NCBI GenBank assembly: GCA_964475435.1
Contig: CAYYWT010000024.1
Location: 1-17,004, forward strand
DNA length: 17,004 nt
Source of the DNA: an uncultured Eubacteriales bacterium
Lineage (GTDB): Bacteria; Bacillota; Clostridia; TANB77; RGIG9151
Direction of reading: 5' to 3'
Part shown: one piece after another, positions 1,595 to 16,100 of the stretch
Numbering within the stretch: the first letter of the stretch is position 1
Layout: every line of letters begins with the position of its first letter
Notes under the pieces: model-generated
What the model saw: only the letters and a program-made list of their open reading frames with translations
The model's database searches: none
Told to the model about the DNA's origin: nothing
Translations under genes and position numbers: made by a program

Positions 1595-1736
1595 TAATAG
1601 ATAAAAAGTGGCTATAAAGGACTCAAGAGTTAATAAAGCTGTGTGCTTTATACTAATGATAAACGAGTTTTTTACGTCCCTTTTGTGTTAATATTTTAGA
1701 AAAAATGCCGATTTATTAAAAGAGGTGGGAAGGATT

Positions 1737-3035
1737 ATGAAACTAAAAATTAAAATTTTAATTGGAATTTTGGTAGCGTCAATTACAATTTGCGGGATTT
1801 TTATGTTGGTTTTTGAAAATGCTGAGTTTACCAAAATAGTTATTGCGAGAAATGAAGAACAGAAGAAACTTGATGAAGAAGCTCAGAAGAAGGCGGAGGA
1901 AGAAAAAAGGAAACAAGATGAGTATATTGATTCACAAGCTCCGTATGTAGAATATGACGTAAAAAACCAATATTATCAAGGACTAGCTTTAGTAAAGAAA
2001 GACGGGAAATGGGGATATATAGATAAAAACGGACACGTAAAAATTCCTCTTATTTACGATTCAGCGAATAATTTTATGGGAGAGAAAATCGCGAAGGTTA
2101 AAAAGGACGGATTATGGGGATACATAAATACTGAAGGAAAAGAAGTGATACCGGTTGATTACTATTTTTGCGGAGAAATATCTAATGGTATAATCGCAGT
2201 AGGAAAAGGCGGTAAGTATGGATTTATAGATAGAAACGGAAATAAAGTATGTGATCTTTTATATGATAGAGTTGAACCATTTTCAAGCGAAGGAACAGCG
2301 AAGGTTATATTGGATAGGAAATTTGGATATATAAATGCTTCAGGAGTTGTAATAGTGCCGATAGAAAATCCGTCTAATGAAGAAAATAAAGACTTTACCG
2401 GAACTTGGAATAGAACAAAGACGCATTCATCACTCGGAGCTACGCTCGAGATAAATCATCAAATGGCGACATCGTTTGACTTTAAGTTAACATCTAATTA
2501 TTATTCAATAAGTGATACATTTGAAGGAACAGCAGAAATAACGTCTACCAATACAGCAACGTATGTTTACGGATATGGAACTAATCAAGATAAAATTACG
2601 TTTACAATAGTTGATGACTGGATGGAAATTACGTCAGTACTTGGAGGAAATCTTGATATGAGCTCTGAAAATACAATAATAGGAAAATTCGTGAAAGATT
2701 CGCCTGTATATGATAATGAAGGGTTAGTTGAACAATTATTTGCAAAACAAGATGTTTTAACCAGAATAAGACAAACAATAGGCGAAGAATTATACGAAGA
2801 CGACTTCTTATATGGATTAAGGAACGGATTATATGAAGTTAGTAAATTAAAAGATTCGTCAGTAATAAAAGGAACAGTGTACCATGTTTGGGTTCCGACG
2901 ACTGAAAAAAATTATAAGCTTTTAGTAAATGATATGTATGTATACTTCTATTCAAAGAGTCAAGATATTTACAAAACGGACGATCCGGATAGACAGTCGA
3001 GAGTTCCTAGTGATATTACTTATGACGAAATTTAG
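1737..3035 (+). CDS. membrane-anchored WG (KWG)-repeat protein with an unassigned C-terminal domain
   Basis: ATG at 1737 lies behind AGAGGTGGGAAGG, so the track's GTG at 1725 sits inside the RBS. N-terminal TM helix and Lys/Glu-rich linker. At least four repeats of the D/GxWGYI(D/N)xxGxxVIP type (WG-containing repeat family). The last ~220 aa are beta-rich and unrecognised. Confidence 0.75.
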   Translation: MKLKIKILIGILVASITICGIFMLVFENAEFTKIVIARNEEQKKLDEEAQKKAEEEKRKQDEYIDSQAPYVEYDVKNQYYQGLALVKKDGKWGYIDKNGHVKIPLIYDSANNFMGEKIAKVKKDGLWGYINTEGKEVIPVDYYFCGEISNGIIAVGKGGKYGFIDRNGNKVCDLLYDRVEPFSSEGTAKVILDRKFGYINASGVVIVPIENPSNEENKDFTGTWNRTKTHSSLGATLEINHQMATSFDFKLTSNYYSISDTFEGTAEITSTNTATYVYGYGTNQDKITFTIVDDWMEITSVLGGNLDMSSENTIIGKFVKDSPVYDNEGLVEQLFAKQDVLTRIRQTIGEELYEDDFLYGLRNGLYEVSKLKDSSVIKGTVYHVWVPTTEKNYKLLVNDMYVYFYSKSQDIYKTDDPDRQSRVPSDITYDEI

Positions 3036-3066
3036 GGACTGTAAAAATGTTTCATAATGTATTGTA

Positions 3067-3074
3067 CCTAAATT
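3067..3074. repeat. left 8-bp direct repeat (CCTAAATT) flanking element copy A
   Basis: Identical to 3246-3253 and directly abuts the element terminus. Confidence 0.7.
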
Positions 3075-3245
3075 GTTACTAGTCAGACTTAATTACTTAT
3101 CAAAAGATAATATCATTAGTTTTCCCGCTCAAACACGTCCTCGGAGAAAATTTTAACTGAAATTAATTATGAAATTTTCTCCGGTACGACTCGCTCTTTA
3201 AACTAATGATATTATCTTTTTAAAACAAATAGACTGAATAGTAAC
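3075..3245 (+). mobile_element. MITE-like palindromic element, copy A (171 bp)
   Basis: Terminal inverted repeats GTTACTAGTCAGAC / reverse complement GTTACTATTCAGTC. Perfect 21-bp internal inverted repeat (3102-3122 with 3199-3219). Central 11-bp hairpin (3143-3153 with 3172-3182). No ORF. A second copy lies at 15869-16042 in reverse orientation. Flanked by an 8-bp direct repeat. Confidence 0.7.
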
Positions 3246-3253
3246 CCTAAATT
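3246..3253. repeat. right 8-bp direct repeat (CCTAAATT) flanking element copy A
   Basis: Identical to 3067-3074. Confidence 0.7.
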
Positions 3254-3274
3254 TAACAAAATTGACTTTTTAGG

Positions 3275-3303
3275 TTGACTTTTGACGAAGATAGATTTAG
3301 AAT
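3275..3303 (+). promoter_or_regulatory. sigma-A type promoter of the aspS leader
   Basis: TTGACT (3275-3280), 17-nt spacer, TAGAAT (3298-3303). Confidence 0.6.
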
Positions 3304-3309
3304 AAGACG

Positions 3310-3534
3310 AAGGCGTTGATAAAGAGGAGTAAAATTAAACTGAGTTTAAGAGAGGAAACAGAGTTGGTGTGATGTTTCTAACTAAAGTAATTTGAAGACA
3401 CTTTTGAGCAGTTTCGTGATGAAGCGAGATCGTATGGTTACGTTATAGACTAAGAGTTAAAATGTGGGTGGTACCACGGAAGAGATACTTTCGTCCCTAG
3501 AGTAGTTTTTACTACTTTAGGGGCTTTTATTTTT
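3310..3534 (+). promoter_or_regulatory. T-box riboswitch leader, Asp specifier (GAC)
   Basis: Specifier-loop context GAA-GAC-A-CTTTTGAGCA (GAC at 3397-3399) parallels the classic GAA-NNN-A...GAGCA layout. AGAGA element in stem I. T-box sequence AAATGTGGGTGGTACCACGG at about 3460-3479. Terminator/antiterminator alternative lies just before aspS. Confidence 0.85.
3495..3534 (+). terminator. T-box leader terminator
   Basis: CCCTAGAGTAG (3495-3505) pairs with CTACTTTAGGG (3512-3522, one G-U), followed by CTTTTATTTTT. Its 5' arm can pair instead with the T-box GGG. Confidence 0.8.
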
Positions 3535-3552
3535 AAGAGAGGAGAGAATTTT

Positions 3553-5304
3553 ATGAATGAGTACAGAACGCATTATTGCAATGAACTTAGAATGGCTGAT
3601 GTTGGTAAAGAAGTAAGAATAGCCGGGTGGGTACAGACTATAAGAGATTTAGGATCTGTTATTTTCTTGGATATAAGAGATCATTTTGGTATTACTCAGG
3701 CTGTTATAACTGAAGATGAGGAAAATATGAAGATTATTAGAGGGATAAATACGGAAAGTACGGTTTCTATTACCGGTACTGTTCGTGAGCGTTCTAATAA
3801 AAATCCTAATCTTCCGACAGGAGATATTGAAATTGTTCCGTCTAAGATTACTGTATGCGGTAAGTCTAAAAACGTTTTGCCGTTTGAGATTAATATTGAT
3901 CAAGACGTAAGAGAAGATTTAAGACTTGAATATAGATTCCTTGATTTGAGAAATGAGAAAATTCATAATAATATTGTGTTTAGAGCGAAGATTATGAAAA
4001 CTGTTCGTGAAATAATGGACGATATGGGATTTATTGAGGTACAAACGCCTATTTTAACAAGTTCTTCTCCGGAAGGAGCAAGAGACTTTTTAGTTCCAAG
4101 TCGTCTTCATCCGGGAGAGTTTTATGCTTTGCCTCAAGCTCCTCAACAGTTTAAACAACTTTTGATGATGTCAGGCTTTGATAAGTATTATCAAATTGCG
4201 CCATGTTTTAGAGATGAAGATCCTAGAGCTGACAGATCGCCGGGAGAATTTTATCAAGTGGATTTGGAAATGTCATTTGCGACTCAAGAAGATGTGCTTA
4301 AGGCTGTTGAAAATGTTGTACTAAATACGTTTAGAAAGCATACAAATTGGTCAGTTAGCGAAGATGGATTAATTAAAATTCCGTTTAAGGAAGCTATGAA
4401 GAAATATGGTTCAGATAAACCTGATTTAAGGAATCCGCTTATTATCGAGGATGCTACTGAACTATTTAAAGATACTGAATTTGCTGCGTTTAAGGACAAG
4501 ACTGTTAGAATGATTATTGTTCCGAATTGTGCTACTCAAACTAGAAAGTTCTTTGACCAAATGACTGAGTTTGCAGTTAATGAGTGTGGCGCAAAGGGAC
4601 TTGGTTATATTAAAGTTAATGAAGATATGACGTTTAATGGTGGAATAACTAAGTTTGTTACTGAAGAAATGAGAAAAGTATTGTTAGATAAAGTTCATGC
4701 AAATGATGCTGTTTTCTTTATGGCTGATACTGAAGAAGCGATTAATAAAATTGCCGGTGGAGTTAGAATTGAGCTTGGAAAGAGACTTGATTTATTAGAA
4801 AAGAATACTTATAAGTTCTGTTGGATAGTTGATTTCCCTATGTATGAAAAAGATGATGAAGGAAAGATAGAATTTAATCATAATCCTTTCTCGATGCCTC
4901 AAGGCGGACTAGAAGCGTTAAATACGAAAGATCCTTTGGATATTTACGCTTGGCAATATGACTTGGTATGTAATGGCTATGAGCTTGCGTCCGGTGCTGT
5001 TAGAAATCACGATGTAGAAATTATGGAGAGAGCGTTTGAAATTGCGGGTTATACTAAAGAACACGTTGAAGCTAAGTTTGGTGCTTTATATAATGCGTTC
5101 CAATATGGTGCTCCACCTCATGCCGGAGCTGCTCCCGGACTTGACAGAATGGTTATGTTACTTGCTCAAGAGGATAGCATAAGAGAAGTAATTGCTTTCC
5201 CGAAAAATAGTAAAGCTAGAGATTTACTTATGGGTGCACCGTCTAGAGTGTATAAAAATCAGTTGGATGATGTACATATTATGCTAAAACCTATAGAAAA
5301 ATAA
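3553..5304 (+). CDS. aspS: aspartate--tRNA ligase (bacterial type, with insertion domain)
   Basis: 583 aa. N-terminal OB anticodon-binding domain. Class II motifs FRDEDPRADRSPEFYQVD-like (FRDEDPRADRSPGEFYQVDLEMSF) and GLDRMVMLL. RBS GAGAGGAGAG. Asp T-box upstream. Confidence 0.97.
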   Translation: MNEYRTHYCNELRMADVGKEVRIAGWVQTIRDLGSVIFLDIRDHFGITQAVITEDEENMKIIRGINTESTVSITGTVRERSNKNPNLPTGDIEIVPSKITVCGKSKNVLPFEINIDQDVREDLRLEYRFLDLRNEKIHNNIVFRAKIMKTVREIMDDMGFIEVQTPILTSSSPEGARDFLVPSRLHPGEFYALPQAPQQFKQLLMMSGFDKYYQIAPCFRDEDPRADRSPGEFYQVDLEMSFATQEDVLKAVENVVLNTFRKHTNWSVSEDGLIKIPFKEAMKKYGSDKPDLRNPLIIEDATELFKDTEFAAFKDKTVRMIIVPNCATQTRKFFDQMTEFAVNECGAKGLGYIKVNEDMTFNGGITKFVTEEMRKVLLDKVHANDAVFFMADTEEAINKIAGGVRIELGKRLDLLEKNTYKFCWIVDFPMYEKDDEGKIEFNHNPFSMPQGGLEALNTKDPLDIYAWQYDLVCNGYELASGAVRNHDVEIMERAFEIAGYTKEHVEAKFGALYNAFQYGAPPHAGAAPGLDRMVMLLAQEDSIREVIAFPKNSKARDLLMGAPSRVYKNQLDDVHIMLKPIEK

Positions 5305-5332
5305 AAAAGGTGGACTTCAGTCCGCCTTTTTT
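5303..5332. terminator. bidirectional intrinsic terminator between convergent aspS and the minus-strand orphan gene
   Basis: A6, GGTGGAC (5309-5315), loop TTCA, GTCCGCC (5320-5326), T6. Confidence 0.8.
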
Positions 5333-5341
5333 ATTTAAAAA

Positions 5342-6301
5342 TTAATGTAAATATTTATACACTTTTGCTAAGCAATTATTTGCTTGATAAATTCCTGAAA
5401 TTTTGATGATCCTATTTTCATTTTTTACGTCTTTGCCGTTTAATATACTCATTGGAAAATATGAGAAATCTTTACTAAACTTGAGTGTAATAAAATTGTT
5501 TTGCCAACTCATTTCTATTTCACCGTCTTGAGTATGAACAGTGAAATGAGGGGTTCCTTCAGTATCTGAGAAATAATCGTAATTACAATCTTTCCAACCG
5601 GTGTTGTGCATAACAGATAAAATAAATGCCTCGTTTTTTAAAGAATTGCTATACTGAAGACATCCTCTATGCGAAATGTTTGGTGTGTTGTTCCAATCAA
5701 TGTTATCAAAAAGTATATCTTTTAATGTAAGTTCCTGCAAACAATAAGGGCATAACTGGCAGAAATTTGTAAGACAATCAACAGGAAATGGAGAAACTGA
5801 AAAGTTTTTATGAGTAGCACTAAAATCGTTAAGACTAAAAATTATAGGTAACTCATATGACTTTTCTAAAACCCATATAGAACCATCCTTTTTGATAAGG
5901 AATTTACCATAAAGTATGTATTCCCCAAAATTGTTGTAATCCGGATAAGCTTTTCGATACTGCTGTATGTCTGTTAAGTAGTCGATAAATCCACGCATAG
6001 AGTGTAGTTTTAATTCGATATAGCCGACATTACTAAAGAGTGTGCTTGAATAAGAAGGTAGAAATTCATTGTATTTTACCTGGATAAAGTGGTCTTTTCC
6101 AAGACTTTCAGCAATTAGCAATTCGTTTCGGAATAAATCTATTGTCGTGTCTGGAAGTATAGGAGCTCCGTAGATGTCGTACTTTTCAGTTGATACCCAG
6201 CAGCCGTTGACAAGTATTTTCGCACTTTTATAAGTTGCTAGATAAGAAAGAATAAGAGCATTATTAGCTGTGAGTTTAAACTTTACATTCTCAATGATCA
6301 T
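5342..6301 (-). CDS. hypothetical protein (319 aa), no recognisable family, Cys cluster CX5CX2CX2C
   Basis: Long ORF. ATG at 6301-6299 lies 8 nt after GGAGG (6314-6310). The track's upstream ATG (6355) falls at the predicted transcription start and is rejected. No TM segment or signal peptide. Rich in aromatic residues. Confidence 0.6.
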   Translation of the reverse strand: MIIENVKFKLTANNALILSYLATYKSAKILVNGCWVSTEKYDIYGAPILPDTTIDLFRNELLIAESLGKDHFIQVKYNEFLPSYSSTLFSNVGYIELKLHSMRGFIDYLTDIQQYRKAYPDYNNFGEYILYGKFLIKKDGSIWVLEKSYELPIIFSLNDFSATHKNFSVSPFPVDCLTNFCQLCPYCLQELTLKDILFDNIDWNNTPNISHRGCLQYSNSLKNEAFILSVMHNTGWKDCNYDYFSDTEGTPHFTVHTQDGEIEMSWQNNFITLKFSKDFSYFPMSILNGKDVKNENRIIKISGIYQANNCLAKVYKYLH

Positions 6302-6359
6302 TTTAAAATCCTCCACAAAAATAAAATAGTAGATTAAGAAATATAAACTTAACATAACG

Positions 6360-6388
6360 ATTATACAACACTAAATGGCAGTTGTCAA
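6360..6388 (-). promoter_or_regulatory. consensus sigma-A promoter of the orphan gene
   Basis: On the minus strand: TTGACA (6388-6383), exactly 17 nt, TATAAT (6365-6360). Confidence 0.6.
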
Positions 6389-6435
6389 TAAGTTTTGAAT
6401 GTGATATTTTACATAAAGGCTCTTTTTTTAGTGAC

Positions 6436-6464
6436 TTGCTTAAACTAATCAATTGTGATAAACT
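6436..6464 (+). promoter_or_regulatory. candidate miaA-hfq promoter
   Basis: TTGCTT (6436-6441), 17 nt, TAAACT (6459-6464) with an upstream TG (extended -10). Confidence 0.4.
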
Positions 6465-6494
6465 AAAACGTAGTAAAATTAAAGGGGTTTTTTT

Positions 6495-7424
6495 ATGAAG
6501 TCTAAAGTTTTGGTTGTAGCCGGACCTACTGCGTCCGGGAAAACGAAAATAGGAGTAGAATTGGCAAAAAGATTAGATGGAGAGATAATATCTGCTGATT
6601 CTATGCAGATTTATAAATATATGAATATAGGAACTGCAAAGCCCAATATAGAGGAAATGCAAGGAATTCCTCATCATTTAATTGATTTTCTTGAATTAGG
6701 AGAGAATTTTAGTGTTGTTCAATATAAAGAAATGGCGACAGCATGTATAGAAGATATACTGTCGAGAGGGAAAGTACCTATTTTTGTTGGTGGAACCGGC
6801 TTGTATATAAATAGTGTAACTGAAGAAATAAAATATGATGAAACTGCTGAAAATAAAGAAATAAGAGAAAAACTTGAAAAAATAGCTGAACTTGAAGGAA
6901 ATGAAGGGTTATATGCGAAACTTAAAGAGGTAGATATTGATACATATAATAGACTTCATTTAAATGATACAAAACGTATCATAAGAGCGTTAGAAGTGTT
7001 TGAGGCTACTGGAATTACTATTTCTGAACATCAAAAATTGTCTAAAGAAATAGAAAAAAAATACGATTATAAAATTGTAGGTTTATGGATTGAACGTGAG
7101 AGACTATATGATAGAATAAACCGTAGAGTAGATTTGATGGTCGAAAATGGTTTGGAAGATGAGGCAAGAAATATAATCGGTAAGCTTAAAAATGAAGGAA
7201 AAGTTACTTCTTTTCAAGCTATTGGATATAAAGAATTTTTAAAGTATTTTGAAGGAGAAATCAGTTTTGATGATGCGATTGCTTCTATAAAGCAAGAATC
7301 GCGTAGATATGCTAAACGCCAAGTTACATGGTTTAAGCGGACTAATGGGTTAAAATGGATAGATGTTGAGCGTGATATAAATGAAGTTTTAGAAGATATT
7401 ATTAATTATTACGAGGAGGAATAA
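6495..7424 (+). CDS. miaA: tRNA dimethylallyltransferase
   Basis: P-loop [24 protein letters not shown] and the rest match the MiaA pattern. Classic miaA-hfq synteny. Confidence 0.95.
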
Positions 7425-7426
7425 AT

Positions 7427-7690
7427 ATGGCGAATTTACAGGATTTATTTTTAAATCAGGCTAGAAAGGATAAAGTTATAGTAAGTATATACTTAACTAG
7501 TGGTTTTCAATATAGAGGAATAGTAAAAGGGTTTGATAATTTTGTTATAATGCTTGAAAATGATGGAAAGCAATCTCTTATTTATAAACATGCTATTGCG
7601 ACTATTATTCCAACTAAAAATGTAAAAACGATGTTAGGAACTGAAGATCAGCCATTTGACTTTGTAGAGAGTTCAAATCAAATATTATAG
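7427..7690 (+). CDS. hfq: RNA chaperone Hfq
   Basis: Sm1/Sm2 motifs ([28 protein letters not shown]...L....[10 protein letters not shown]). RBS GAGGAGGA lies in the miaA 3' end, with a 2-nt gap. Confidence 0.93.
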
Positions 7691-7730
7691 AGGTTTATTG
7701 AAAATTTACTAAAGATAAAGTGGAGGAAGT

Positions 7731-8963
7731 ATGGATACCGCAAATAAGGTTTATCGAAGGAAAAAAAGAGGAATAAGATGGGGTAGAGTTGTAATAATTG
7801 CATTAATATGTGCATATATTATAATGTTTGTCTACACCTTTTTTGCGCAGTCCATAGAAACTACGAATATTGTATATGGAAATTTAGAAATGGCTGAAAC
7901 AGTATATGGCTATATAACTAGAAACGAACAAATTGTTACAAGTAACTTAGATGGTGAATTATATCCGGTTATGGACGAGGGAGAAAGAGTTTCTAAAGGT
8001 CAGGCGGTTGCAGTAGTAAAAAATGATAATAGTGAGGTTATTTCTAGTAAAATAAAGGAAATTACGAAAAAAATGAGTGCTTTTTCGACACCTAGTATTT
8101 TTAACAAAGATATAATGCTATTAGATAATGAATCGAATGAAATATTGGAAAAATTGGCGGTAAGTAATTATAATGAAAGTTTTTCGGCGCTTAAAGAGAC
8201 GAAAAATAAAATAGAAACAAAACTTAATAAAAAGTCTTCAATTATAGGTGAGAACAGTGCAAAGGGATCGGCAGAGCGTACATATTATGAAGAATTAAAG
8301 AAATATGAAGCGCAACTTACGTATTCTCAGCAAGAATTAACTGCTCCGATTGCGGGAACAGTTGCATATAAGTTAGACGGATATGAAAATGTTTTTGCCA
8401 AAAAAGCAGTTTCCGATTACGATGTATCGACTTTAGAGGAGTTAAATATACCGGTTGGAGAACTTGTAGGTTCTATAAAACCTAATTCATTTAAAATAGT
8501 AGATAATATAGAAGGGTATATAACTGTTGTGTCCGGTTCGGAAGAAGCACTAAATACTGCTGTTGATAAGAAGGTAAAATTGAGATTTTCGGAGATAAGT
8601 CAGGATGAAATTACCGGAAAAGTTGAATTTTTAAGTTTCGAAGATGACAAAGCCGTTATTACATTTAGAATTAATCGTGGGATTGAAAGTTTAATTAATT
8701 ATCGAAAAGTAAAAGTGGATATAATTTGGGATAATGAAAGTGGGATGAAAGTACCATCTAAATCTATAAAGTTTTCTGAAGATGGAAATAAGATTTTTAC
8801 GGTAAATGGTAATCGCGTTATAGAAAAAGATATAGAAGTGGTTGCAAACTGGAACGGAGAAGCAATTATCGAAGGAAAAGACAGCAGTTTATTTTTGTAT
8901 GATGAAATTGCGTTAGATGCGTCTAAGGTTAATTCTAAAAAAATAATTATTTCTGAAAAATAA
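7731..8963 (+). CDS. HlyD-family (membrane-fusion-like) protein with N-terminal TM anchor
   Basis: TM helix near the N-terminus. Barrel-sandwich motifs (EGERVSKGQAVAVV ... LTAPIAGTVAY) flank a coiled-coil stretch. RBS GGAGG. No terminator between hfq and this gene. Confidence 0.6.
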   Translation: MDTANKVYRRKKRGIRWGRVVIIALICAYIIMFVYTFFAQSIETTNIVYGNLEMAETVYGYITRNEQIVTSNLDGELYPVMDEGERVSKGQAVAVVKNDNSEVISSKIKEITKKMSAFSTPSIFNKDIMLLDNESNEILEKLAVSNYNESFSALKETKNKIETKLNKKSSIIGENSAKGSAERTYYEELKKYEAQLTYSQQELTAPIAGTVAYKLDGYENVFAKKAVSDYDVSTLEELNIPVGELVGSIKPNSFKIVDNIEGYITVVSGSEEALNTAVDKKVKLRFSEISQDEITGKVEFLSFEDDKAVITFRINRGIESLINYRKVKVDIIWDNESGMKVPSKSIKFSEDGNKIFTVNGNRVIEKDIEVVANWNGEAIIEGKDSSLFLYDEIALDASKVNSKKIIISEK

Positions 8964-9064
8964 CTAAAGTTTTTTATTACGATGACGATATATGGGTTGG
9001 AATGAATACTAAAGAGATATATTGAGTGAAAATCAATATAAAAAATACGCAGGGAGGTTTGAAT

Positions 9065-9517
9065 ATGTCAGCTTTAATCAACAAGATGTTGAATTTAGTC
9101 GGCTTCGATAATGAAGAAGAACTCATGGAAGAGGAAGGTTACAGTTCAAATACATCAAATAGTAATCAAGAAAATGTAAAGGGAAATGCTAATCCATTTA
9201 AGAAAAATTCTAAAGTGGTTAATCTTTCTGATGCGAATCAACTTAAACTAGTTGTTATGCAACCGAATTCATTTGATGATGCTCAAGATGTATGTGATCA
9301 CTTAAAGGAGAAAAAACCGGTAGTAATAAATCTGGAATATGCGGACAAGGATACTGCTAGAAGGCTTATTGACTTTTTAAGCGGTGCAGTTTATGGCATA
9401 GACGGTCATATTGAAAAAGTTTCTACGTCTATATTTTTGTTAGTACCTTATAATGTTGATATTTTAAACACAGCAAAAGAAGATAAAAACAAGGGAACGT
9501 TTTCCTGGATAAAGTAA
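9065..9517 (+). CDS. sepF: cell division protein SepF
   Basis: ATG at 9065 lies after CAGGGAGG, so the track's GTG at 9026 is an over-extension. The conserved SepF core is VVMQPNSFDDAQDVCDHLKEKKPVVINL...ARRLIDFLSGAVYGIDG. Confidence 0.9.
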   Translation: MSALINKMLNLVGFDNEEELMEEEGYSSNTSNSNQENVKGNANPFKKNSKVVNLSDANQLKLVVMQPNSFDDAQDVCDHLKEKKPVVINLEYADKDTARRLIDFLSGAVYGIDGHIEKVSTSIFLLVPYNVDILNTAKEDKNKGTFSWIK

Positions 9518-9530
9518 TATTGGGAGTTAG

Positions 9531-9561
9531 TAAGGTCCGCACATTATGTGTATGGACCTTA
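9531..9561 (+). terminator. hairpin between sepF and divIVA (possible weak terminator or attenuator)
   Basis: TAAGGTCC (9531-9538) pairs with GGACCTTA (9554-9561), with a further short inner stem. The downstream T-tract is poor (TTGTGTTATTG). Confidence 0.3.
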
Positions 9562-9602
9562 TTGTGTTATTGCACATTTATTAGGAAAGGGAGTGGATTG
9601 AT

Positions 9603-10037
9603 ATGCTTACACCACTTGAATTAGAAAAAAACGAGTTTAAAGGCGGAATAGGATATTCTAAGCGTTCGGTGAACGAATTTTATGATAAACTTAGAGCGGA
9701 TTATGAGACTATATATAAAGAAAATATTGAATTAAAGGATAAGATTTCGTTAATGAATGATGCGATTAGCCAGTATAAAGCTATGGAAGAAGTATTGAAA
9801 ACTGCTATGATAAATGCTCAAACTTCTGCTGAAGAAATTAAAAAGAATGCTCAGGAAAAGGCTGAAAATATAATCCAAGAGGCTGAATTTTTGGCTCAAA
9901 AGAATCGTGAATTTTCTAACCAAGAAGTTATTGACGCAAAAGCTGAAGTTGAGAATTTACGAAAAGAGATGCAAGTGTATAAAGCAAAGGTTGAGGCGAT
10001 TTTAAAGTCTCAAATGGAGATGCTAAGTGAGATATAA
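9603..10037 (+). CDS. divIVA: DivIVA-domain protein
   Basis: N-terminal MLTPLELEKNEFKGGIGYSKRSVNEF matches the DivIVA lipid-binding domain signature, followed by a coiled coil. Lies next to sepF. Confidence 0.85.
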   Translation: MLTPLELEKNEFKGGIGYSKRSVNEFYDKLRADYETIYKENIELKDKISLMNDAISQYKAMEEVLKTAMINAQTSAEEIKKNAQEKAENIIQEAEFLAQKNREFSNQEVIDAKAEVENLRKEMQVYKAKVEAILKSQMEMLSEI

Positions 10038-10065
10038 AAAAGGTGGACTAAAGTCCACCTTTTTT
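10036..10065. terminator. bidirectional intrinsic terminator between convergent divIVA and the BI-1 family gene
   Basis: A6, GGTGGAC (10042-10048), loop TAAA, GTCCACC (10053-10059), T6. The T-run overlaps the stop codon of the minus-strand gene. Confidence 0.8.
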
Positions 10066-10771
10066 AGTCTCTGCTTTTTCCGAAAATTCTAAGTAACTCT
10101 AAAAATAAATTGATAAAATCTAAATATAGAGTTAAAGCTCCGATTATTGCGAATTTTGTAGTAAATTCGTTGTCGTTTCCGATTTGATAAGCCATTGATT
10201 TTATTCTTTGGACATCATATGCCGTTAATCCTACGAAGATGACAATGGCAAGTATAGCTATTATAAATGAAAAAGTATTATTTAGTATAAATAGATTTAC
10301 TAAGCTTGCAAGTATTATTCCTACTAATCCCATAAGTAAAATCGAACCGATTTTAGATAAATCCTTCTTTGTAGTATAACCGTATAACGCCATTATTCCA
10401 AACATTCCGGCAGCTATAAAAAATACGCTGGCAATTGATTCGAAGGTATAGGCTAAAAATATGGTTGAAAGGGTTAGACCGTTTACTACTGAATATAGTA
10501 AAAATGAAGTTATTGCAGCACCCTTACTCATTTTATGGACTCTTGCGGTAAGTACGATTACCAGTACAAGTTCAGCAATTAAAAGCCCTATCCAATAAAT
10601 ATTATTGGTAAAAATTTTTTCTAGAAGCCAAGGCGTAGTAGCAGTATAAAACGCAGTGGCTCCGGTTACTAAAAGTCCGCCGAACATCCAACCGAAAATT
10701 TTTGAAAATACGTCTGAAATGCTTTGTTCTTTACTTCCGTACATATCTACAATTACATCAGAATTATTCAT
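10064..10771 (-). CDS. BAX inhibitor-1/YccA family (TMBIM) membrane protein
   Basis: 235 aa with about 7 TM helices. Family-typical C-terminal region (GLTAYDVQRIK ... GALTLYLDFINLFLELLRIFG). Strong RBS AAGGAGGGG. Confidence 0.85.
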   Translation of the reverse strand: MNNSDVIVDMYGSKEQSISDVFSKIFGWMFGGLLVTGATAFYTATTPWLLEKIFTNNIYWIGLLIAELVLVIVLTARVHKMSKGAAITSFLLYSVVNGLTLSTIFLAYTFESIASVFFIAAGMFGIMALYGYTTKKDLSKIGSILLMGLVGIILASLVNLFILNNTFSFIIAILAIVIFVGLTAYDVQRIKSMAYQIGNDNEFTTKFAIIGALTLYLDFINLFLELLRIFGKSRD

Positions 10772-11041: not shown

Positions 11042-11075
11042 ATCTTTGGATATTAAAAAAACGGGAGGTAATATT

Positions 11076-12308
11076 ATGGGATTAATTAAAGCAGCTTTTG
11101 GAGCGGTAAGTAGTACATTATCTGATCAATGGAAAGAGGCTTTGCGTTGTGAAGAAATGGGAAATGATGTATTAATGATAAAGAAAACTACGCCAAATGG
11201 CGTTATTTCGAATAAAAGTACGATTATTGTAGGACCGGGTCAGGTGGCTATTATTTACGATAATGGTAGGATTGTTGATGCGACGGCTGAGGAAGGTGTT
11301 TATACGTTTGACAGTTCTTCTACTCCTTCTTTGTTTGCAGGACAATGGGGTGGAATGTTTAAAGAAATGTGGCAAAGATTTACATATAATGGTGCTACTG
11401 CTAAAGAGCAAGCTGTTTATTTCTTTAATACAAAAGAGATAATCGGTAACAAGTTCGGTACTCCGAATCCTGTTCCTTATAAAGACTGGGGACATCCAAT
11501 AATGAATGCTAGAACGAATAGCTATATTGCTATGAGTGTAAAGGTAAAATGTTTCGGAACATATACAATTCAGATTGATGATCCGTTTTTGTTTATGTCT
11601 AAAATTGCAGGCCTTTCTGAAGTTTATACAAAAGATCAGCTAGTTGAACAAATAAGGTCTGAGGTTGTTGGTGCTTTTTCTAATGTTATGAATGGACTTG
11701 GTAGCGATAAATATAAAATTGAAGTATTGGAACTTCCTAATAAAACTGACGAAATTAAGCAAATAATGGATCAAGAAGTTTTTGATAAACCTATTCGTGA
11801 ACGTGGAATAAAGATAGTATCGTTTATTGTTGAAAGTTTAACGTTAGATGATGAGTCGAGTGAAAAAATTGACAATTATGAAATTGGCGGAGATGCTTAC
11901 CAACAACAAGGTGTGCTTACAGGTGCATATGCTAACGCTATACAAGGGGCTGCCAATAATGCGAATGGTGCTGCTAATGGTTTTATGGGAATTGGTATGA
12001 TGAATATGGCGACAAACGGAATGAATATGGGAGCAGCGTTTAATAATGCTCAGCCTATGCAACCTAATCCTTCGGTACTAAACCAAAATCCAATTAGTAA
12101 TGCTACTCCAAGTCAACCGGAAAATACGGTTACACCGAACGAAACAATTAAATCTAACGGAGCTGTGTGTACAAAATGCGGAAATCCTGTAAGCGGAAAG
12201 TTTTGCAGTAATTGTGGTGCGCCTGTTATTCAAAAGAAATTTTGCAGTAATTGCGGAACAGAAGTGACAGGAAATTTTTGCACAAATTGCGGAACGAAGG
12301 CTGAATAA
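11076..12308 (+). CDS. SPFH-domain protein (YdjI-like, virion-core-protein-like family) fused to a C-terminal double zinc ribbon
   Basis: ATG at 11076 lies after ACGGGAGG, so the track's TTG at 11046 is rejected. N-terminus MGLIKAAFG...VGPGQVAIIYDNGRIVD is typical of the YdjI/COG4260-type SPFH family. A G/A/N/M/Q-rich linker follows, then two CxxC-x9-CxxC ribbons. Confidence 0.75.
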   Translation: MGLIKAAFGAVSSTLSDQWKEALRCEEMGNDVLMIKKTTPNGVISNKSTIIVGPGQVAIIYDNGRIVDATAEEGVYTFDSSSTPSLFAGQWGGMFKEMWQRFTYNGATAKEQAVYFFNTKEIIGNKFGTPNPVPYKDWGHPIMNARTNSYIAMSVKVKCFGTYTIQIDDPFLFMSKIAGLSEVYTKDQLVEQIRSEVVGAFSNVMNGLGSDKYKIEVLELPNKTDEIKQIMDQEVFDKPIRERGIKIVSFIVESLTLDDESSEKIDNYEIGGDAYQQQGVLTGAYANAIQGAANNANGAANGFMGIGMMNMATNGMNMGAAFNNAQPMQPNPSVLNQNPISNATPSQPENTVTPNETIKSNGAVCTKCGNPVSGKFCSNCGAPVIQKKFCSNCGTEVTGNFCTNCGTKAE

Positions 12309-12324
12309 CTGAGGAGGAAGTTTA

Positions 12325-13371
12325 ATGAACGCAACTGATCATAAATGTCCTGCGTGTTCGGCGTCTTTGCCGTTTAACCCTGAAACGGGTAATTGGAAAT
12401 GCGAATATTGCGGAACGGAATATACTCTAGAAGAACTTGAAAAGTTTGAGGCTAAGAATAGAGAACGTGAGGAACGAAGAAGTAGATATTCTGCTAAGAA
12501 AATGGACGTAGATGAGTATAGTTGTCCTAATTGTGGGGCTAAAATTATTACTGACGAAAATACGGCGGCTACTTTTTGCGTGTATTGTGGTAGTACTTCT
12601 ATTATAAAAAATCGCATTTCTGATATGTTAGAGCCTAAATTTATTATTCCGTTTAAAACTACAAAGACACAGGCAATAGACGCTTTTAAGAAATGTACAA
12701 AAGGTAAATTGTTTGCTCCTAAAGATTTTGCTAAGAAAGAGCAAATAGAAAAAATATCCGGAATTTATATACCTTTTTGGCTGTATGATTGTGATGTTGA
12801 TGGTAAAATCGAATGCTTAGGAACGAAAACGAGAACATGGCGTTCGGGGGATTATCGTTATACAAAAACGGATACGTATAGGGTAGCAAGAGGCGGAAAT
12901 GCGAAATTCGAAAAGGTACCGGTTGATGGTTCTAAGAAATTTGATGATGATACTATGGATTCGATAGAACCGTTTAATTATGGGGAGTTGACGAATTTTT
13001 CGGTGTCGTATTTATCTGGATTTTTGGCTGAAAAATATGATGTTGATGATGATGAAGCGTACGAAAGAGCTAAACTTCGAATGACAGGGACAATAAAAAA
13101 TGAATTGAAAAATCAAATTGTCGGGTACGATACTATTGTAACTAATTCTGAACAAGTTGATATAGACAATTTGAACACGGATTACGTAATGTTTCCGGTT
13201 TGGTTACTTAATATTAAATATAAAGATAAAATGCACACTTTCGCAATGAACGGTCAAACGGGTAAAATGATAGGAAATATTCCTGTTTGTGTTCCTAAAG
13301 CTTTACTTTGGGCACTAGGAGTATTTTTAGGCAGTTTTGGAATTATATCTTTACTTATGAATTTAATGTAG
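12325..13371 (+). CDS. zinc-ribbon membrane protein (YdjG-like)
   Basis: Two CxxC-x14-CxxC ribbons near the N-terminus, a soluble middle domain and one C-terminal TM helix. RBS GAGGAGGA. 16-nt gap after the SPFH gene. Confidence 0.65.
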   Translation: MNATDHKCPACSASLPFNPETGNWKCEYCGTEYTLEELEKFEAKNREREERRSRYSAKKMDVDEYSCPNCGAKIITDENTAATFCVYCGSTSIIKNRISDMLEPKFIIPFKTTKTQAIDAFKKCTKGKLFAPKDFAKKEQIEKISGIYIPFWLYDCDVDGKIECLGTKTRTWRSGDYRYTKTDTYRVARGGNAKFEKVPVDGSKKFDDDTMDSIEPFNYGELTNFSVSYLSGFLAEKYDVDDDEAYERAKLRMTGTIKNELKNQIVGYDTIVTNSEQVDIDNLNTDYVMFPVWLLNIKYKDKMHTFAMNGQTGKMIGNIPVCVPKALLWALGVFLGSFGIISLLMNLM

Positions 13372-13384
13372 GAGGTGGCGAAAG

Positions 13385-14215
13385 TTGAAAAAAATAATTG
13401 TTTTTATGATTATGGTTATATCACTGCTTAATGTTGCTTTTGCTACTTCAAAGTTAAATATTCCGACGGTAGATACGAGCAAGAAAGTTTATGACTTTGC
13501 GGATTTATTGACGACTGCCGAAGAGGATAATTTGTATAATTCCATTACTGAATTTATTGCAAATTATGATTTAGATATGGCTATTGTTACGACTCTTAAA
13601 AATTCTACTTCTGCGATGAGATATGCTGAGGATTTTTATGATTATAACGGATTTGGGACTGATTCTACAAATGACGGAATAATTTTTTTGATTGATATGG
13701 ATAACAGAGAGATGTATATTGCGACTACCGGTATGGCTCAACTTATTTATGACGATTACCGTATAAATAAGATTTTAGATGCTACGTACGATGAAATTAC
13801 GACCGAAGACTATTACGGATGTGCCGGTGAGTTTGTAAGGTTATCCGGAGAGTACGCAAGTATTGGAATTCCGAATAGTAATAAATATGCAGATATTGAC
13901 TTAAATGGTGATTATTATGTTTCCAATACGCATAGAAATGGCGGTATAAGTTTTGAGATTGCATTTGTTATTGCAGGGATAATAACTTTAATATTTATGA
14001 TTATTACATTGTCTAAACATAGAATGATCAAAAAAGCATCTGAAGCTAAACATTATTTGAAAGATATAAGAATAACAAATAGAGTAGACAGCTTTTTACA
14101 TACTCATACGTCGAAGGTTTATATACCGCCGGCAAATACTTCATCAGGTGGAGGTTCGTCAACTCACCACGGCAGTAGTGGAGTAAGTCACGGCGGAGGT
14201 GGAAGAAGATTTTAA
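13385..14215 (+). CDS. TPM-domain protein (YdjH-like) with signal peptide, C-terminal TM helix and Gly/Ser-rich tail
   Basis: TTG start 6 nt after GGAGGTGG. The TPM signature region is VYDFADLLTTAEEDNLYNSITEF....DMAIVTT ... GIIFLIDMDNREMYIATTG. The tail is GGGSSTHHGSSGVSHGGGGRRF. Confidence 0.8.
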   Translation: MKKIIVFMIMVISLLNVAFATSKLNIPTVDTSKKVYDFADLLTTAEEDNLYNSITEFIANYDLDMAIVTTLKNSTSAMRYAEDFYDYNGFGTDSTNDGIIFLIDMDNREMYIATTGMAQLIYDDYRINKILDATYDEITTEDYYGCAGEFVRLSGEYASIGIPNSNKYADIDLNGDYYVSNTHRNGGISFEIAFVIAGIITLIFMIITLSKHRMIKKASEAKHYLKDIRITNRVDSFLHTHTSKVYIPPANTSSGGGSSTHHGSSGVSHGGGGRRF

Positions 14216-14230
14216 GGGAAAGAGGAAAAT

Positions 14231-15034
14231 ATGATAATAAATGATTTTGATATTAATCAAATTGCGGAATCCGGAGAGTGCTTTAGATGGAATAAGATTA
14301 ATGAAAACCATTACTCCGGAATAATAGGAGAAAATTATTGTGAAGTTTTGCAAGATGGAAAAAATGTAGAGTTTTTAGGAATATCTGAGGAAGAAGCTAA
14401 ATATTATTTTGATTTAGATAGAGATTATTCAAAGATAAAAGAATTTTATAGGACTGATGAAGTGTTAAATAAGGCTATTGGTTTTGGTGAGGGGATTAGA
14501 ATACTTAATCAAGACAAATTTGAAACTTTGATTTCTTTTATAATTTCTGCAAATAATAATATACCTCGAATAAAGAAATCTGTTGAAAAAATTGCTCAAA
14601 AATACGGGAAAGAGATTACAGATGGAAAGTTTGCTTTCCCGACTCCTAAAGAGCTGGAAATTGCGACTGAGGAAGAATTAAAAGAAACCGGAGTTGGCTT
14701 TAGGGCTAAGTACATAGTAAATACTTGTCAGGCTATAAATAACGGTTTTGATTTGGAGAAAGTTGCTAAATTGCCTACTAAAGAATGCAAGAGGGAACTT
14801 ATGAAATTAATGGGAGTGGGCCCTAAAGTTGCTGATTGTGTGATGCTTTTTTCTATGGGGAAAACGGATGCTTTCCCGGTTGATGTTTGGATTAAGAGAA
14901 TAATGGAAGAATTGTACATAAAAGAAGAAGTACCGCTTAATCAAATTCAAAAGTACTCGGAAGAAAAGTTTGGAGCGTATGCCGGAATTGCACAACAGTA
15001 CTTATTCTTTTATGCAAGAGATAATTTGAAATAA
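14231..15034 (+). CDS. ogg: 8-oxoguanine DNA glycosylase/AP lyase (OGG1-type HhH-GPD)
   Basis: N-terminal GECFRW motif. HhH-GPD element LMGVGPKVADCVMLF with the catalytic Lys, and the downstream FPVDVW Asp, as in OGG1/clostridial Ogg. Confidence 0.85.
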   Translation: MIINDFDINQIAESGECFRWNKINENHYSGIIGENYCEVLQDGKNVEFLGISEEEAKYYFDLDRDYSKIKEFYRTDEVLNKAIGFGEGIRILNQDKFETLISFIISANNNIPRIKKSVEKIAQKYGKEITDGKFAFPTPKELEIATEEELKETGVGFRAKYIVNTCQAINNGFDLEKVAKLPTKECKRELMKLMGVGPKVADCVMLFSMGKTDAFPVDVWIKRIMEELYIKEEVPLNQIQKYSEEKFGAYAGIAQQYLFFYARDNLK

Positions 15035-15055
15035 AATTTTTAGGAGGGTAACAAA

Positions 15056-15868
15056 TTGATAGACATAATTAATGCGATTATTTTTGGCGTAATTGAAGGG
15101 ATAACTGAATGGTTACCGATAAGTAGTACGGGGCATATGATTTTAGCTGAGGAATTTATTAAGCTAAATGTTACTCCGGAGTTTTGGAAGATGTTTTTAG
15201 TTGTAATACAACTTGGAGCGATACTAGCAGTGGTTTTATTGTATTTTAGGAAATTAAATCCTTTTGCGCTTAGTAAAACTGCTGAAGAAAAGAAACAAAC
15301 GTGGACTTTATGGTTTAAGGTTATCGTTGCATGTTTACCTGCTGCGGTAATCGGAATATTGTTTGAAGATACCATAGACATGTTTTTGGATAATTCGTGG
15401 GTAGTTGCAATTATGCTTATTTTATATGGTATATTCTTTATTTTAATTGAAAATAGAAATAAAAAGCCGGAAGTTACAGAGTTAAAGACCTTAACATATA
15501 AAACTGCCTTTGGAATAGGTTTGTTTCAAGTTTTAGCTTTAATTCCCGGAACTTCCAGGTCCGGCGCTACAATACTTGGAGCTATGTTAATTGGCACATC
15601 AAGAGAAATTGCTGCTGAATTTACATTCTTTTTAGCAATTCCGGTTATGTTCGGAGCTAGTTTTTTAAAACTGCTCAAATTTGGCTTTGCTTTTTCTGGA
15701 GCAGAACTTATGATATTGCTAGTAGGAATGGTAACTGCGTTTATTGTTTCGATAGTTGCAATTAAATTTTTAATGAACTATATAAAGAAAAATGACTTTA
15801 AAGTGTTTGGTTATTATAGGATTGTTTTAGGTATTTTGGTGTTGTTGTATTTTACATTTTGCATATAA
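15056..15868 (+). CDS. uppP: undecaprenyl-diphosphate phosphatase
   Basis: TTG start 7 nt after AGGAGGG. BacA/UppP motifs [20 protein letters not shown] and [10 protein letters not shown]. Polytopic membrane protein. Confidence 0.95.
15861..15868. repeat. left 8-bp direct repeat (GCATATAA) flanking element copy B; contains the uppP stop codon
   Basis: Identical to 16043-16050. TAA at 15866-15868 is the uppP stop. Confidence 0.7.
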
Positions 15869-16042
15869 TTACTAGTCAGACTGATTGTTTCAAAAAAAGA
15901 TAATATCATTAGTTTAAAGAGCGAGTTCCACAGTTGAAAAATTCAAAATAAAAATTTAATCGAATTTTTCAACGAGGACGTGTTTGAGCGGGAAAACTAA
16001 TGATATTATCTTTTTTATAAGTAATTAAATCTGACCAGTAAC
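15869..16042 (-). mobile_element. MITE-like palindromic element, copy B (174 bp, inverted relative to copy A)
   Basis: The reverse complement aligns end to end with 3075-3245 and includes identical 42-nt and 33-nt blocks. Perfect 21-bp internal inverted repeat. Central 12-bp hairpin (15933-15944 with 15962-15973). Flanked by an 8-bp direct repeat. One terminal base is ambiguous (TTACT versus GTTACT). Confidence 0.7.
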
Positions 16043-16050
16043 GCATATAA
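16043..16050. repeat. right 8-bp direct repeat (GCATATAA) flanking element copy B
   Basis: Identical to 15861-15868. Confidence 0.7.
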
Positions 16051-16070: not shown

Positions 16071-16100
16071 TTGACAATTTCCATAAAACAATGGTAAAAT
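16071..16100 (+). promoter_or_regulatory. rpsL (str operon) promoter
   Basis: TTGACA (16071-16076), 18 nt, TGgTAAAAT extended -10 (hexamer 16095-16100). Confidence 0.6.

Follow-up and report, generated by a model that had tools for sequence, protein, structure and literature searches.

Two copies of a palindromic, non-coding element of 171 and 174 bp, located in a 17,004-nucleotide stretch of DNA (hereafter the window) from an uncultured Eubacteriales bacterium, are very probably a real MITE, that is, a small non-coding transposon for which mobilization by a trans-acting transposase is proposed. This reading follows from the termini shared by elements with different interiors, the unrelated 8-bp target-site duplications (TSDs), the occurrence of both orientations, the empty sites found in relatives, and the presence of decayed copies. 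Set against Rfam, plasmids, phages, IMG/VR and the literature, the elements are well supported as a new family in an uncultured lineage of Clostridia. A preliminary description of the first copy had proposed a candidate MITE that was previously undescribed; the candidacy is now supported by the second copy, by the empty sites and by the TSDs proper to each copy, and negative searches of the same five resources are consistent with the claim of novelty.

Copy A, 171 bp long (3075-3245, plus strand), lies between the stop codon of a WG-repeat protein gene (1725-3035) and the promoter of the aspS T-box leader. The sequence CCTAAATT directly abuts it on both sides, at 3067-3074 and 3246-3253; the chance rate of such an 8-mer direct repeat, exact and at fixed spacing, is 7.4e-5 per position of the window. 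The terminal inverted repeats (TIRs) are 14 nt long and agree at 12 positions, the left one being GTTACTAGTCAGAC (3075-3088) and the right one, read on the minus strand, GTTACTATTCAGTC (3232-3245). Further inside, on the plus strand, the left subterminal arm AAAAGATAATATCATTAGTTT (3102-3122) and its complement, the right subterminal arm AAACTAATGATATTATCTTTT (3200-3220), form a perfect 21-nt inverted repeat, and these arms enclose a central hairpin (3142-3183, with arms at 3142-3154 and 3171-3183) in whose 11-bp core GGAGAAAATTT (3143-3153) pairs with AAATTTTCTCC (3172-3182). An asymmetric, GC-rich inner segment, CCCGCTCAAACACGTCCTCG (3124-3143), marks the left-type half of the element. The abutting duplication, the imperfectly inverse termini, the perfect inverted repeat and the central hairpin had all been noted in the preliminary description, and each is confirmed here.

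The absence of an ORF from copy A, also claimed earlier, was borne out, as the longest ORF overlapping the element has 27 aa and begins in the flank; for copies A and B together, the longest overlapping ORFs (27-43 aa) reach into the flanks, and none of 30 aa or more is contained within the element. The same is true of the statement that the termini were not recognized as those of an Rfam RNA, no family reaching its gathering score within copy A and the sole passing match being the neighbouring T-box. At permissive E-values, copy A gave only generic, long-hairpin models of plant miRNA precursors, with 14-24 bits compared with thresholds of 74-211. As a single-stranded RNA, copy A folds into one long imperfect hairpin of -51.3 kcal/mol, compared with -20.0 +/- 3.4 kcal/mol for shuffled sequences (z = -9.2), and copy B yields z = -9.3. 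The 19-nt core of the arms, AAGATAATATCATTAGTTT, occurs four times in the window against 0.05 expected, and the features of copy A are beyond chance. Neither a canonical terminator nor a promoter above the shuffle background was detected inside copies A or B.

Copy B (15869-16042, minus strand, 174 bp), recovered by repeat finding and alignment, is inverted relative to copy A and matches it at 145 of 175 aligned positions (83%). It is inserted between uppP (15056-15868) and rpsL. Its TSD, GCATATAA, stands at 15861-15868 and 16043-16050, and the stop codon TAA of uppP (15866-15868) is supplied by the left one. On the plus strand, its subterminal arms are AAAAAAAGATAATATCATTAGTTT (15892-15915) and AAACTAATGATATTATCTTTTTT (15994-16016), and its central hairpin (15933-15973) consists of GTTGAAAAATTC paired with GAATTTTTCAAC; the TIR adjoining rpsL (16029-16042) reads GTTACTGGTCAGAT on the minus strand. 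If the TSD is 8 bp long, the left end of copy B lacks the terminal G; alternatively, A15868 is a mutated terminal G, in which case the element has 175 bp and the TSD 7 bp.

Between these copies, the two full members of the A/B subfamily in hand, conservation is uneven. All four 21-nt arms are identical, each of them containing the 9-bp palindrome GATAATATC, and the remaining element is 64-89% identical, with 76-89% in the outer termini and 64% in the central hairpin region, the GC-rich inner segment matching at 20 of 20 positions. In the central hairpin, three base pairs have been changed by compensatory double changes that keep the pairing. The arms are most simply read as putative transposase binding sites, retained by copies competent for transposition. 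Both copies are intergenic and have opposite orientations relative to the flanking genes. Their common internal architecture and length indicate that A and B spread as a miniature element and not through the separate decay of insertion sequences (IS); the inner segments, being asymmetric, are consistent with derivation from the dissimilar ends of a parent IS.

Downstream of copy A lie the aspS leader promoter, TTGACT-17-TAGAAT (3275-3303, plus strand), the T-box leader itself (3307-3501, an Rfam match) and aspS (3553-5304), and downstream of copy B is the promoter of rpsL (16071-16100, plus strand), TTGACA-18-TAAAAT, which has an extended -10 TG. The G+C content of the window is 33%. The best match of AspS, 94% identical, comes from a gut metagenome, the named sources of close AspS matches are all "MAG: Clostridia bacterium", and the nearest named genus for UppP is Caproiciproducens, at approximately 72%. 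The host lineage of the elements is uncultured, gut-associated Clostridia.

Other features of the window were recorded as well. Near-identical bidirectional terminator hairpins, AAAAAAGGTGGACT-nnn-AGTCCACCTTTTTT, which are 94% complementary, occur at 5302-5334, after aspS, and at 10034-10066, between DivIVA-like and Bax1-I genes; they may serve as convergent terminators or represent a tiny family of repeats. The ORFs at 221-619 (132 aa) and 5342-6355 (minus strand, 337 aa) had no Pfam match. Three tandem 23-nt repeats spaced 36-39 nt apart (12198-12295) encode repeated zinc-ribbon CxxC motifs at the C-terminus of a Band_7_1/DZR protein (11046-12308).

The exact RpsL protein of the window was found on many related contigs, which provided the comparison for the uppP-rpsL locus. 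Positions 15861-16048 of the window correspond to about 6 bp in contigs L038, L039 and L041-L046, in which the flanking genes have 75-78% nucleotide identity, and a clean empty site is present at this locus in seven related metagenomic contigs. Without the element and one copy of the TSD, the window gives a collinear alignment with L038, L039 and L043-L046; the site in L043, for example, reads ...TTTAACATAAGAAATATTTTC, compared with ...TTTTGCATATAAAGAAATATTTTC in the reconstructed window. L041 carries at this locus a different insert, of 75 bp, with a terminator hairpin. At the WG-aspS locus, L016, L052 and L053 (WG proteins approximately 85-88% identical) have no element after the WG-repeat gene; there, the WG stop codon is followed by 25 nt and then by the TTGACT promoter. 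The preliminary description had predicted empty sites with a single CCTAAATT between the WG-repeat gene and the aspS leader. This prediction stood in part: element-free relatives were found, together with the clean site at uppP-rpsL, but no allele carrying exactly one CCTAAATT and no element was recovered at WG-aspS, the spacer in L016, L052 and L053 being shorter and diverged. The description had also held that presence of the element at the locus in all relatives would speak for a fixed structure; seven relatives are empty at uppP-rpsL and three are without the element at WG-aspS.

Additional differences were observed around the WG-aspS junction. The spacer that separates the WG stop codon from the TSD of copy A includes, in the window, 34 additional nucleotides (3036-3069) with no counterpart in L016, L052 and L053, and AAATTTAGG at 3028-3036 is the inverted complement of CCTAAATTT, the TSD plus T, at 3246-3254. 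A single T-box leader directly follows the WG gene in the window, L052 and L053. In L016, the aspS T-box leader is present twice, along with the final approximately 20 nt of the WG gene (4500-4819 and 9296-9608; compare window 3254-3552), and the two copies enclose five genes, including those for a radical SAM protein, a NUDIX protein and a PPDK_N-domain protein. The two arrangements differ by a segmental duplication or deletion mediated by the leader repeat.

A related element was identified in L059 (UppP 91% identical), a contig that has a 4.4-kb island between uppP and rpsL. This element, of 141 bp (10423-10563), stands immediately before the rpsL promoter; its TIR is perfect over 15 nt (GTTACTATTCAGACT) and matches at 19 of 20 positions over 20 nt. 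The termini are the same as those of copies A and B, and the interior is unrelated, consisting of two GC-rich hairpins with no AAAGATAATATCATTAGTTT arms. It is flanked by the TSD GTTATAGA at 10415-10422 and 10565-10572, with one extra C at the right junction. Judged by sequence, the elements form two subfamilies, the A/B type and the L059 type, that share their termini only. The second full copy in the window and the TIR-sharing element of L059 thus supply the further copies for which the preliminary description had recommended a search, and the repeats that bound them (GCATATAA and GTTATAGA, respectively) agree with its view that copies of a mobile element should be flanked by direct repeats. 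In all, three independent insertions have 8-bp TSDs of differing sequence (CCTAAATT, GCATATAA and GTTATAGA).

Decayed copies were found in other relatives. L047, which is 86-95% identical to the window, retains at the uppP-rpsL site the terminal approximately 85 nt of an A/B-subfamily element, in the orientation opposite to copy B and joined to an unrelated terminator hairpin. In L055-L057, a 34-bp remnant occurs right after the uppP stop codon, one terminus matching at 9 of 9 positions and the other at 22 of 26; 7 of 500 shuffles were as good, and synteny is broken past the remnant. The region downstream of uppP in L054 was indistinguishable from shuffles. When an nhmmer profile of A and B was run against all fetched loci, it recovered only A, B, L049 (same strain) and the half copy of L047. 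The assemblies L060 and L061 end exactly 30 nt into an L059-type element, and L049 ends exactly at the end of the 30-mer common to A and B; contig ends 30 nt (k-1) into a repeat are expected of k = 31 unitigs.

The uppP-rpsL junction is a rearrangement hot spot of the clade. Between the 3' end of uppP and the rpsL promoter, L041 has the 75-bp terminator insert (9853-9915), L047 the half element with its terminator (7084-7250), and L059 the island, with genes for a DUF7788 protein, a transglutaminase-core protein and others, plus the MITE (6276-10572). Entirely different genes follow uppP in L054 (from 10829), L055 (from 10826), L056 and L057. Within L059, positions 10464-10497 hold a GC-rich hairpin, GCGCAGCTGAcctTCAGCTGCG followed by AATTTATTTTT, that resembles an intrinsic terminator facing rpsL.

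MITEs are defined as non-coding elements of less than 500 bp, with TIRs of approximately 4-30 bp, flanking direct repeats, and an autonomous IS acting in trans (PMC10969869, section 2.1). With lengths of 171 and 174 bp and no coding capacity, copies A and B fall within these bounds, and so do the TIRs (14 nt, with 12 matches, in A, and a perfect 15 nt in L059) and the direct repeats found at A, B and the L059 element. Mobility is indicated by the two copies in opposite orientations, the empty relatives and the contig breaks at the repeat. The AT-rich intergenic sites and the stable stem-loops described above are also those of MITEs.

Other explanations were weighed against the MITE reading. 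One alternative is that the elements are a fixed, immobile hairpin that belongs to the host, serves a structural or regulatory purpose (for example as a 3' stabiliser, as a terminator or as an insulator between operons) and was duplicated by ordinary recombination, as suggested by the very stable fold (z about -9), the three compensatory pair changes that keep the central stem between the copies, and the position of both copies between a gene end and a promoter. This proposal is given only the slightest credence, since a perfect 8-bp duplication of its own borders each copy, the sites are empty and collinear in relatives, the two copies point in opposite directions with respect to their neighbouring genes, no canonical terminator was detected in the element, and another element combines these termini with an unrelated interior. 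It is also improbable that each copy is the in-situ wreck of a full-length IS whose transposase gene was lost independently at each locus, so that the miniature form never transposed. No autonomous partner was seen, and the left and right inner segments are asymmetric, as expected of sequence derived from IS ends; however, copies A and B have the same internal junction, the same hairpin position and a near-equal length, which two independent deletions would not yield.

The long palindromic architecture, with its perfectly conserved 21-nt inverted arms, and the intergenic location recall REP/REPIN-like or other palindromic repeats that spread by a non-DDE route, either through a RAYT/HUH enzyme or by template switching. 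REP/REPIN elements are associated with a RAYT gene, and no RAYT-like gene is among the Pfam annotations listed for the window; these elements are not known to have terminal inverted repeats bounded by target duplications. An origin of this kind is very improbable given that the three insertions have 8-bp TSDs exactly at the TIR ends and that the second subfamily shares only the termini, which points to end recognition by a transposase. Palindromes can also arise artefactually in some long-read assemblies, but the probability that the elements are a chimeric join or a hairpin artefact is negligible. Logan short-read contigs of SRR10277277 cover 4201-9088 and 11982-15923 of the window at 100% identity, so the sequence is independently reproduced; the second match takes in the first 55 nt of copy B and the uppP junction, and related elements occur in other samples.

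The insertions that support the MITE reading have similar positions with respect to promoters. At the rpsL site, the TSDs of copy B (GCATATAA) and of the L059 element (GTTATAGA) end at the identical nucleotide before AGAAATATTTTCTAAAATGG-TTGACA, both insertions lying 20 bp upstream of the -35 box of rpsL; since they differ in TSD and in subfamily, these two insertions were independent events. The truncated copy of L047 ends within 1 bp of the same position; it has no matching flanking duplication, and its independence from the other insertions is only possible. In copy A, the distance from the end of the TSD to the aspS -35 box is 21 nt, compared with 20 nt at rpsL, and for this copy alone the coincidence of position amounts to approximately 2 in 53 possible positions. 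The spacers are very tight: the uppP stop codon lies inside the TSD of copy B, and the TSD of the L059 element takes up all of the space from a terminator T-tract to the conserved block upstream of the promoter. With spacers so tight, selection against other positions is a sufficient explanation. It is unlikely, if still worth consideration, that the family is target-selective and that the transposase or a host factor places insertions approximately 20 bp upstream of the -35 box in strong sigma-A promoters, where the UP element has its outer edge. The conserved hairpin, kept by the three compensatory changes, could be functional as a promoter insulator or as a 3'-end structure.

In the mechanism proposed for the MITE, a transposase supplied in trans would recognize the approximately 15-20 bp TIR, with the consensus GTTACTAKTCAGACTTAA, and in the A/B subfamily it probably would also recognize the invariant 21-nt subterminal arms. 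The element, excised or copied by this enzyme, would be inserted into a target whose two strands are cut 8 bp apart, and repair of the staggered cut would generate the 8-bp direct repeats. The 8-bp TSDs suggest a staggered-cut insertion of the DDE type, and we infer that the enzyme is a DDE transposase; as no transposase or full-length IS with such termini was found, the assignment stays at this level. Candidate IS families with 8-bp duplications may include ISL3, IS256, IS1595 and the long Clostridial IS6-like group. The insertions that survive lie in the few dispensable base pairs between the end of the upstream gene and the UP element and -35 region of a strong downstream promoter. A read-through transcript is predicted to form a hairpin of -51 to -58 kcal/mol, which could affect 3'-end stability or termination.

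In approximately 330 kb of related contigs, no autonomous element with the A/B termini and no transposase gene were found. The exact 19-mer of the arm core, AAGATAATATCATTAGTTT, gave 15 matches in GTDB representatives, 19 in JGI metagenome contigs and 2 in IMG/VR, all of them single; since the matches are single, short (19-29 nt) and from unrelated taxa, they are attributed to chance. These genome and metagenome scans used an interior 19-mer, by which relatives sharing only the TIR, as the L059 type does, would be missed. TIR-based patterns in IMG/VR gave nothing, or one chance match inside a phage ORF, and in PLSDB and INPHARED, blastn searches with the TIR and with each subfamily gave no match, or chance 18-24-mers starting away from the terminus. 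A literature search for the terminal and arm sequences yielded no matching papers.

The elements provide a clean MITE family from a lineage represented by metagenomes only, for which TIRs, TSDs and an empty site are documented along with two subfamilies and decayed copies. They explain the fragmentation of short-read assemblies at the uppP-rpsL and WG-aspS junctions, and the TIR signature GTTACTAKTCAGACTTAA can be used to find the transposase. If the insertions at the same nucleotide reflect targeting, this would be an unusual case of promoter-proximal site selection by a bacterial transposon.

The elements described here resemble known prokaryotic MITEs, such as the Correia element of Neisseria, in being small (<500 bp) and non-coding, with TIRs and flanking direct repeats, in their AT-rich intergenic sites, often just upstream of genes, in their stable stem-loop transcript, and in having subfamilies and a genus- or species-restricted distribution (PMC10969869; PMC11602168). 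A census of 1.4 million MITEs recognized about 111,000 clusters, mostly genus- or species-specific, and a new family in an uncultured lineage is thus expected and not surprising (PMC11602168). They differ from known MITEs in the lack of sequence similarity to any in the collections searched, in the lack of a strong outward promoter in copies A and B, and in their host, an uncultured member of the Clostridia. The Correia element duplicates TA, and the pneumococcal RUP is mobilised by an IS630-type enzyme, also with a TA duplication. A Correia-like or IS630-mobilised (RUP) MITE was rejected on this ground, the TSDs of A, B and the L059 element being 8 bp of differing sequence and not TA.

Long-hairpin intergenic repeats are also known in enterobacteria (ERIC/YPAL) and in Enterococcus faecalis (EFAR, approximately 170 bp), with TSDs that are short (TA-type) or unclear. 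As generally described, they are similar to the present elements in size (approximately 130-170 bp), in the imperfect palindrome that spans the whole length, in their position near gene ends and in possible effects on mRNA 3' ends, and are set apart by their taxa and sequences. Among pneumococcal repeats, BOX is modular, and no RUP, BOX or SPRITE element is known to have an 8-bp TSD or the A/B termini. RUP, BOX and SPRITE are similar to copies A and B as small, non-coding, intergenic repeats of Firmicutes, and some of them carry terminator-like hairpins, as does the L059 subfamily (PMC10969869).

The IS6/IS26 group has an 8-bp TSD and TIRs of 12-36 bp, and its MITEs (MITEBth2 and MITEHarch3), together with the long Clostridial IS6-like elements ISCpe7, ISCbo1 and ISTps1, are similar to the present family in the 8-bp TSD and in having hosts among the Firmicutes and Clostridia (PMC6807381). 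The TSDs of the elements have the length expected of an IS6/IS26-derived MITE. The IS26-type TIR consensus, GGTTCTGTTGCAAA, has GG at positions 1-2 and G at position 7 (PMC6807381); an IS26-type TIR was rejected, as GTTACTAKTCAGAC matches this consensus at approximately 6 of 14 positions and has no GG start, in a comparison limited to that consensus. Non-complementary bases at the very ends of the TIRs, as seen in copy B, are frequent in the long Clostridial IS6-like group, which comprises clades VII and VIII (PMC6807381). These long Clostridial IS6-like elements, with their 8-bp duplications, constitute a lead for the parent IS of the family.
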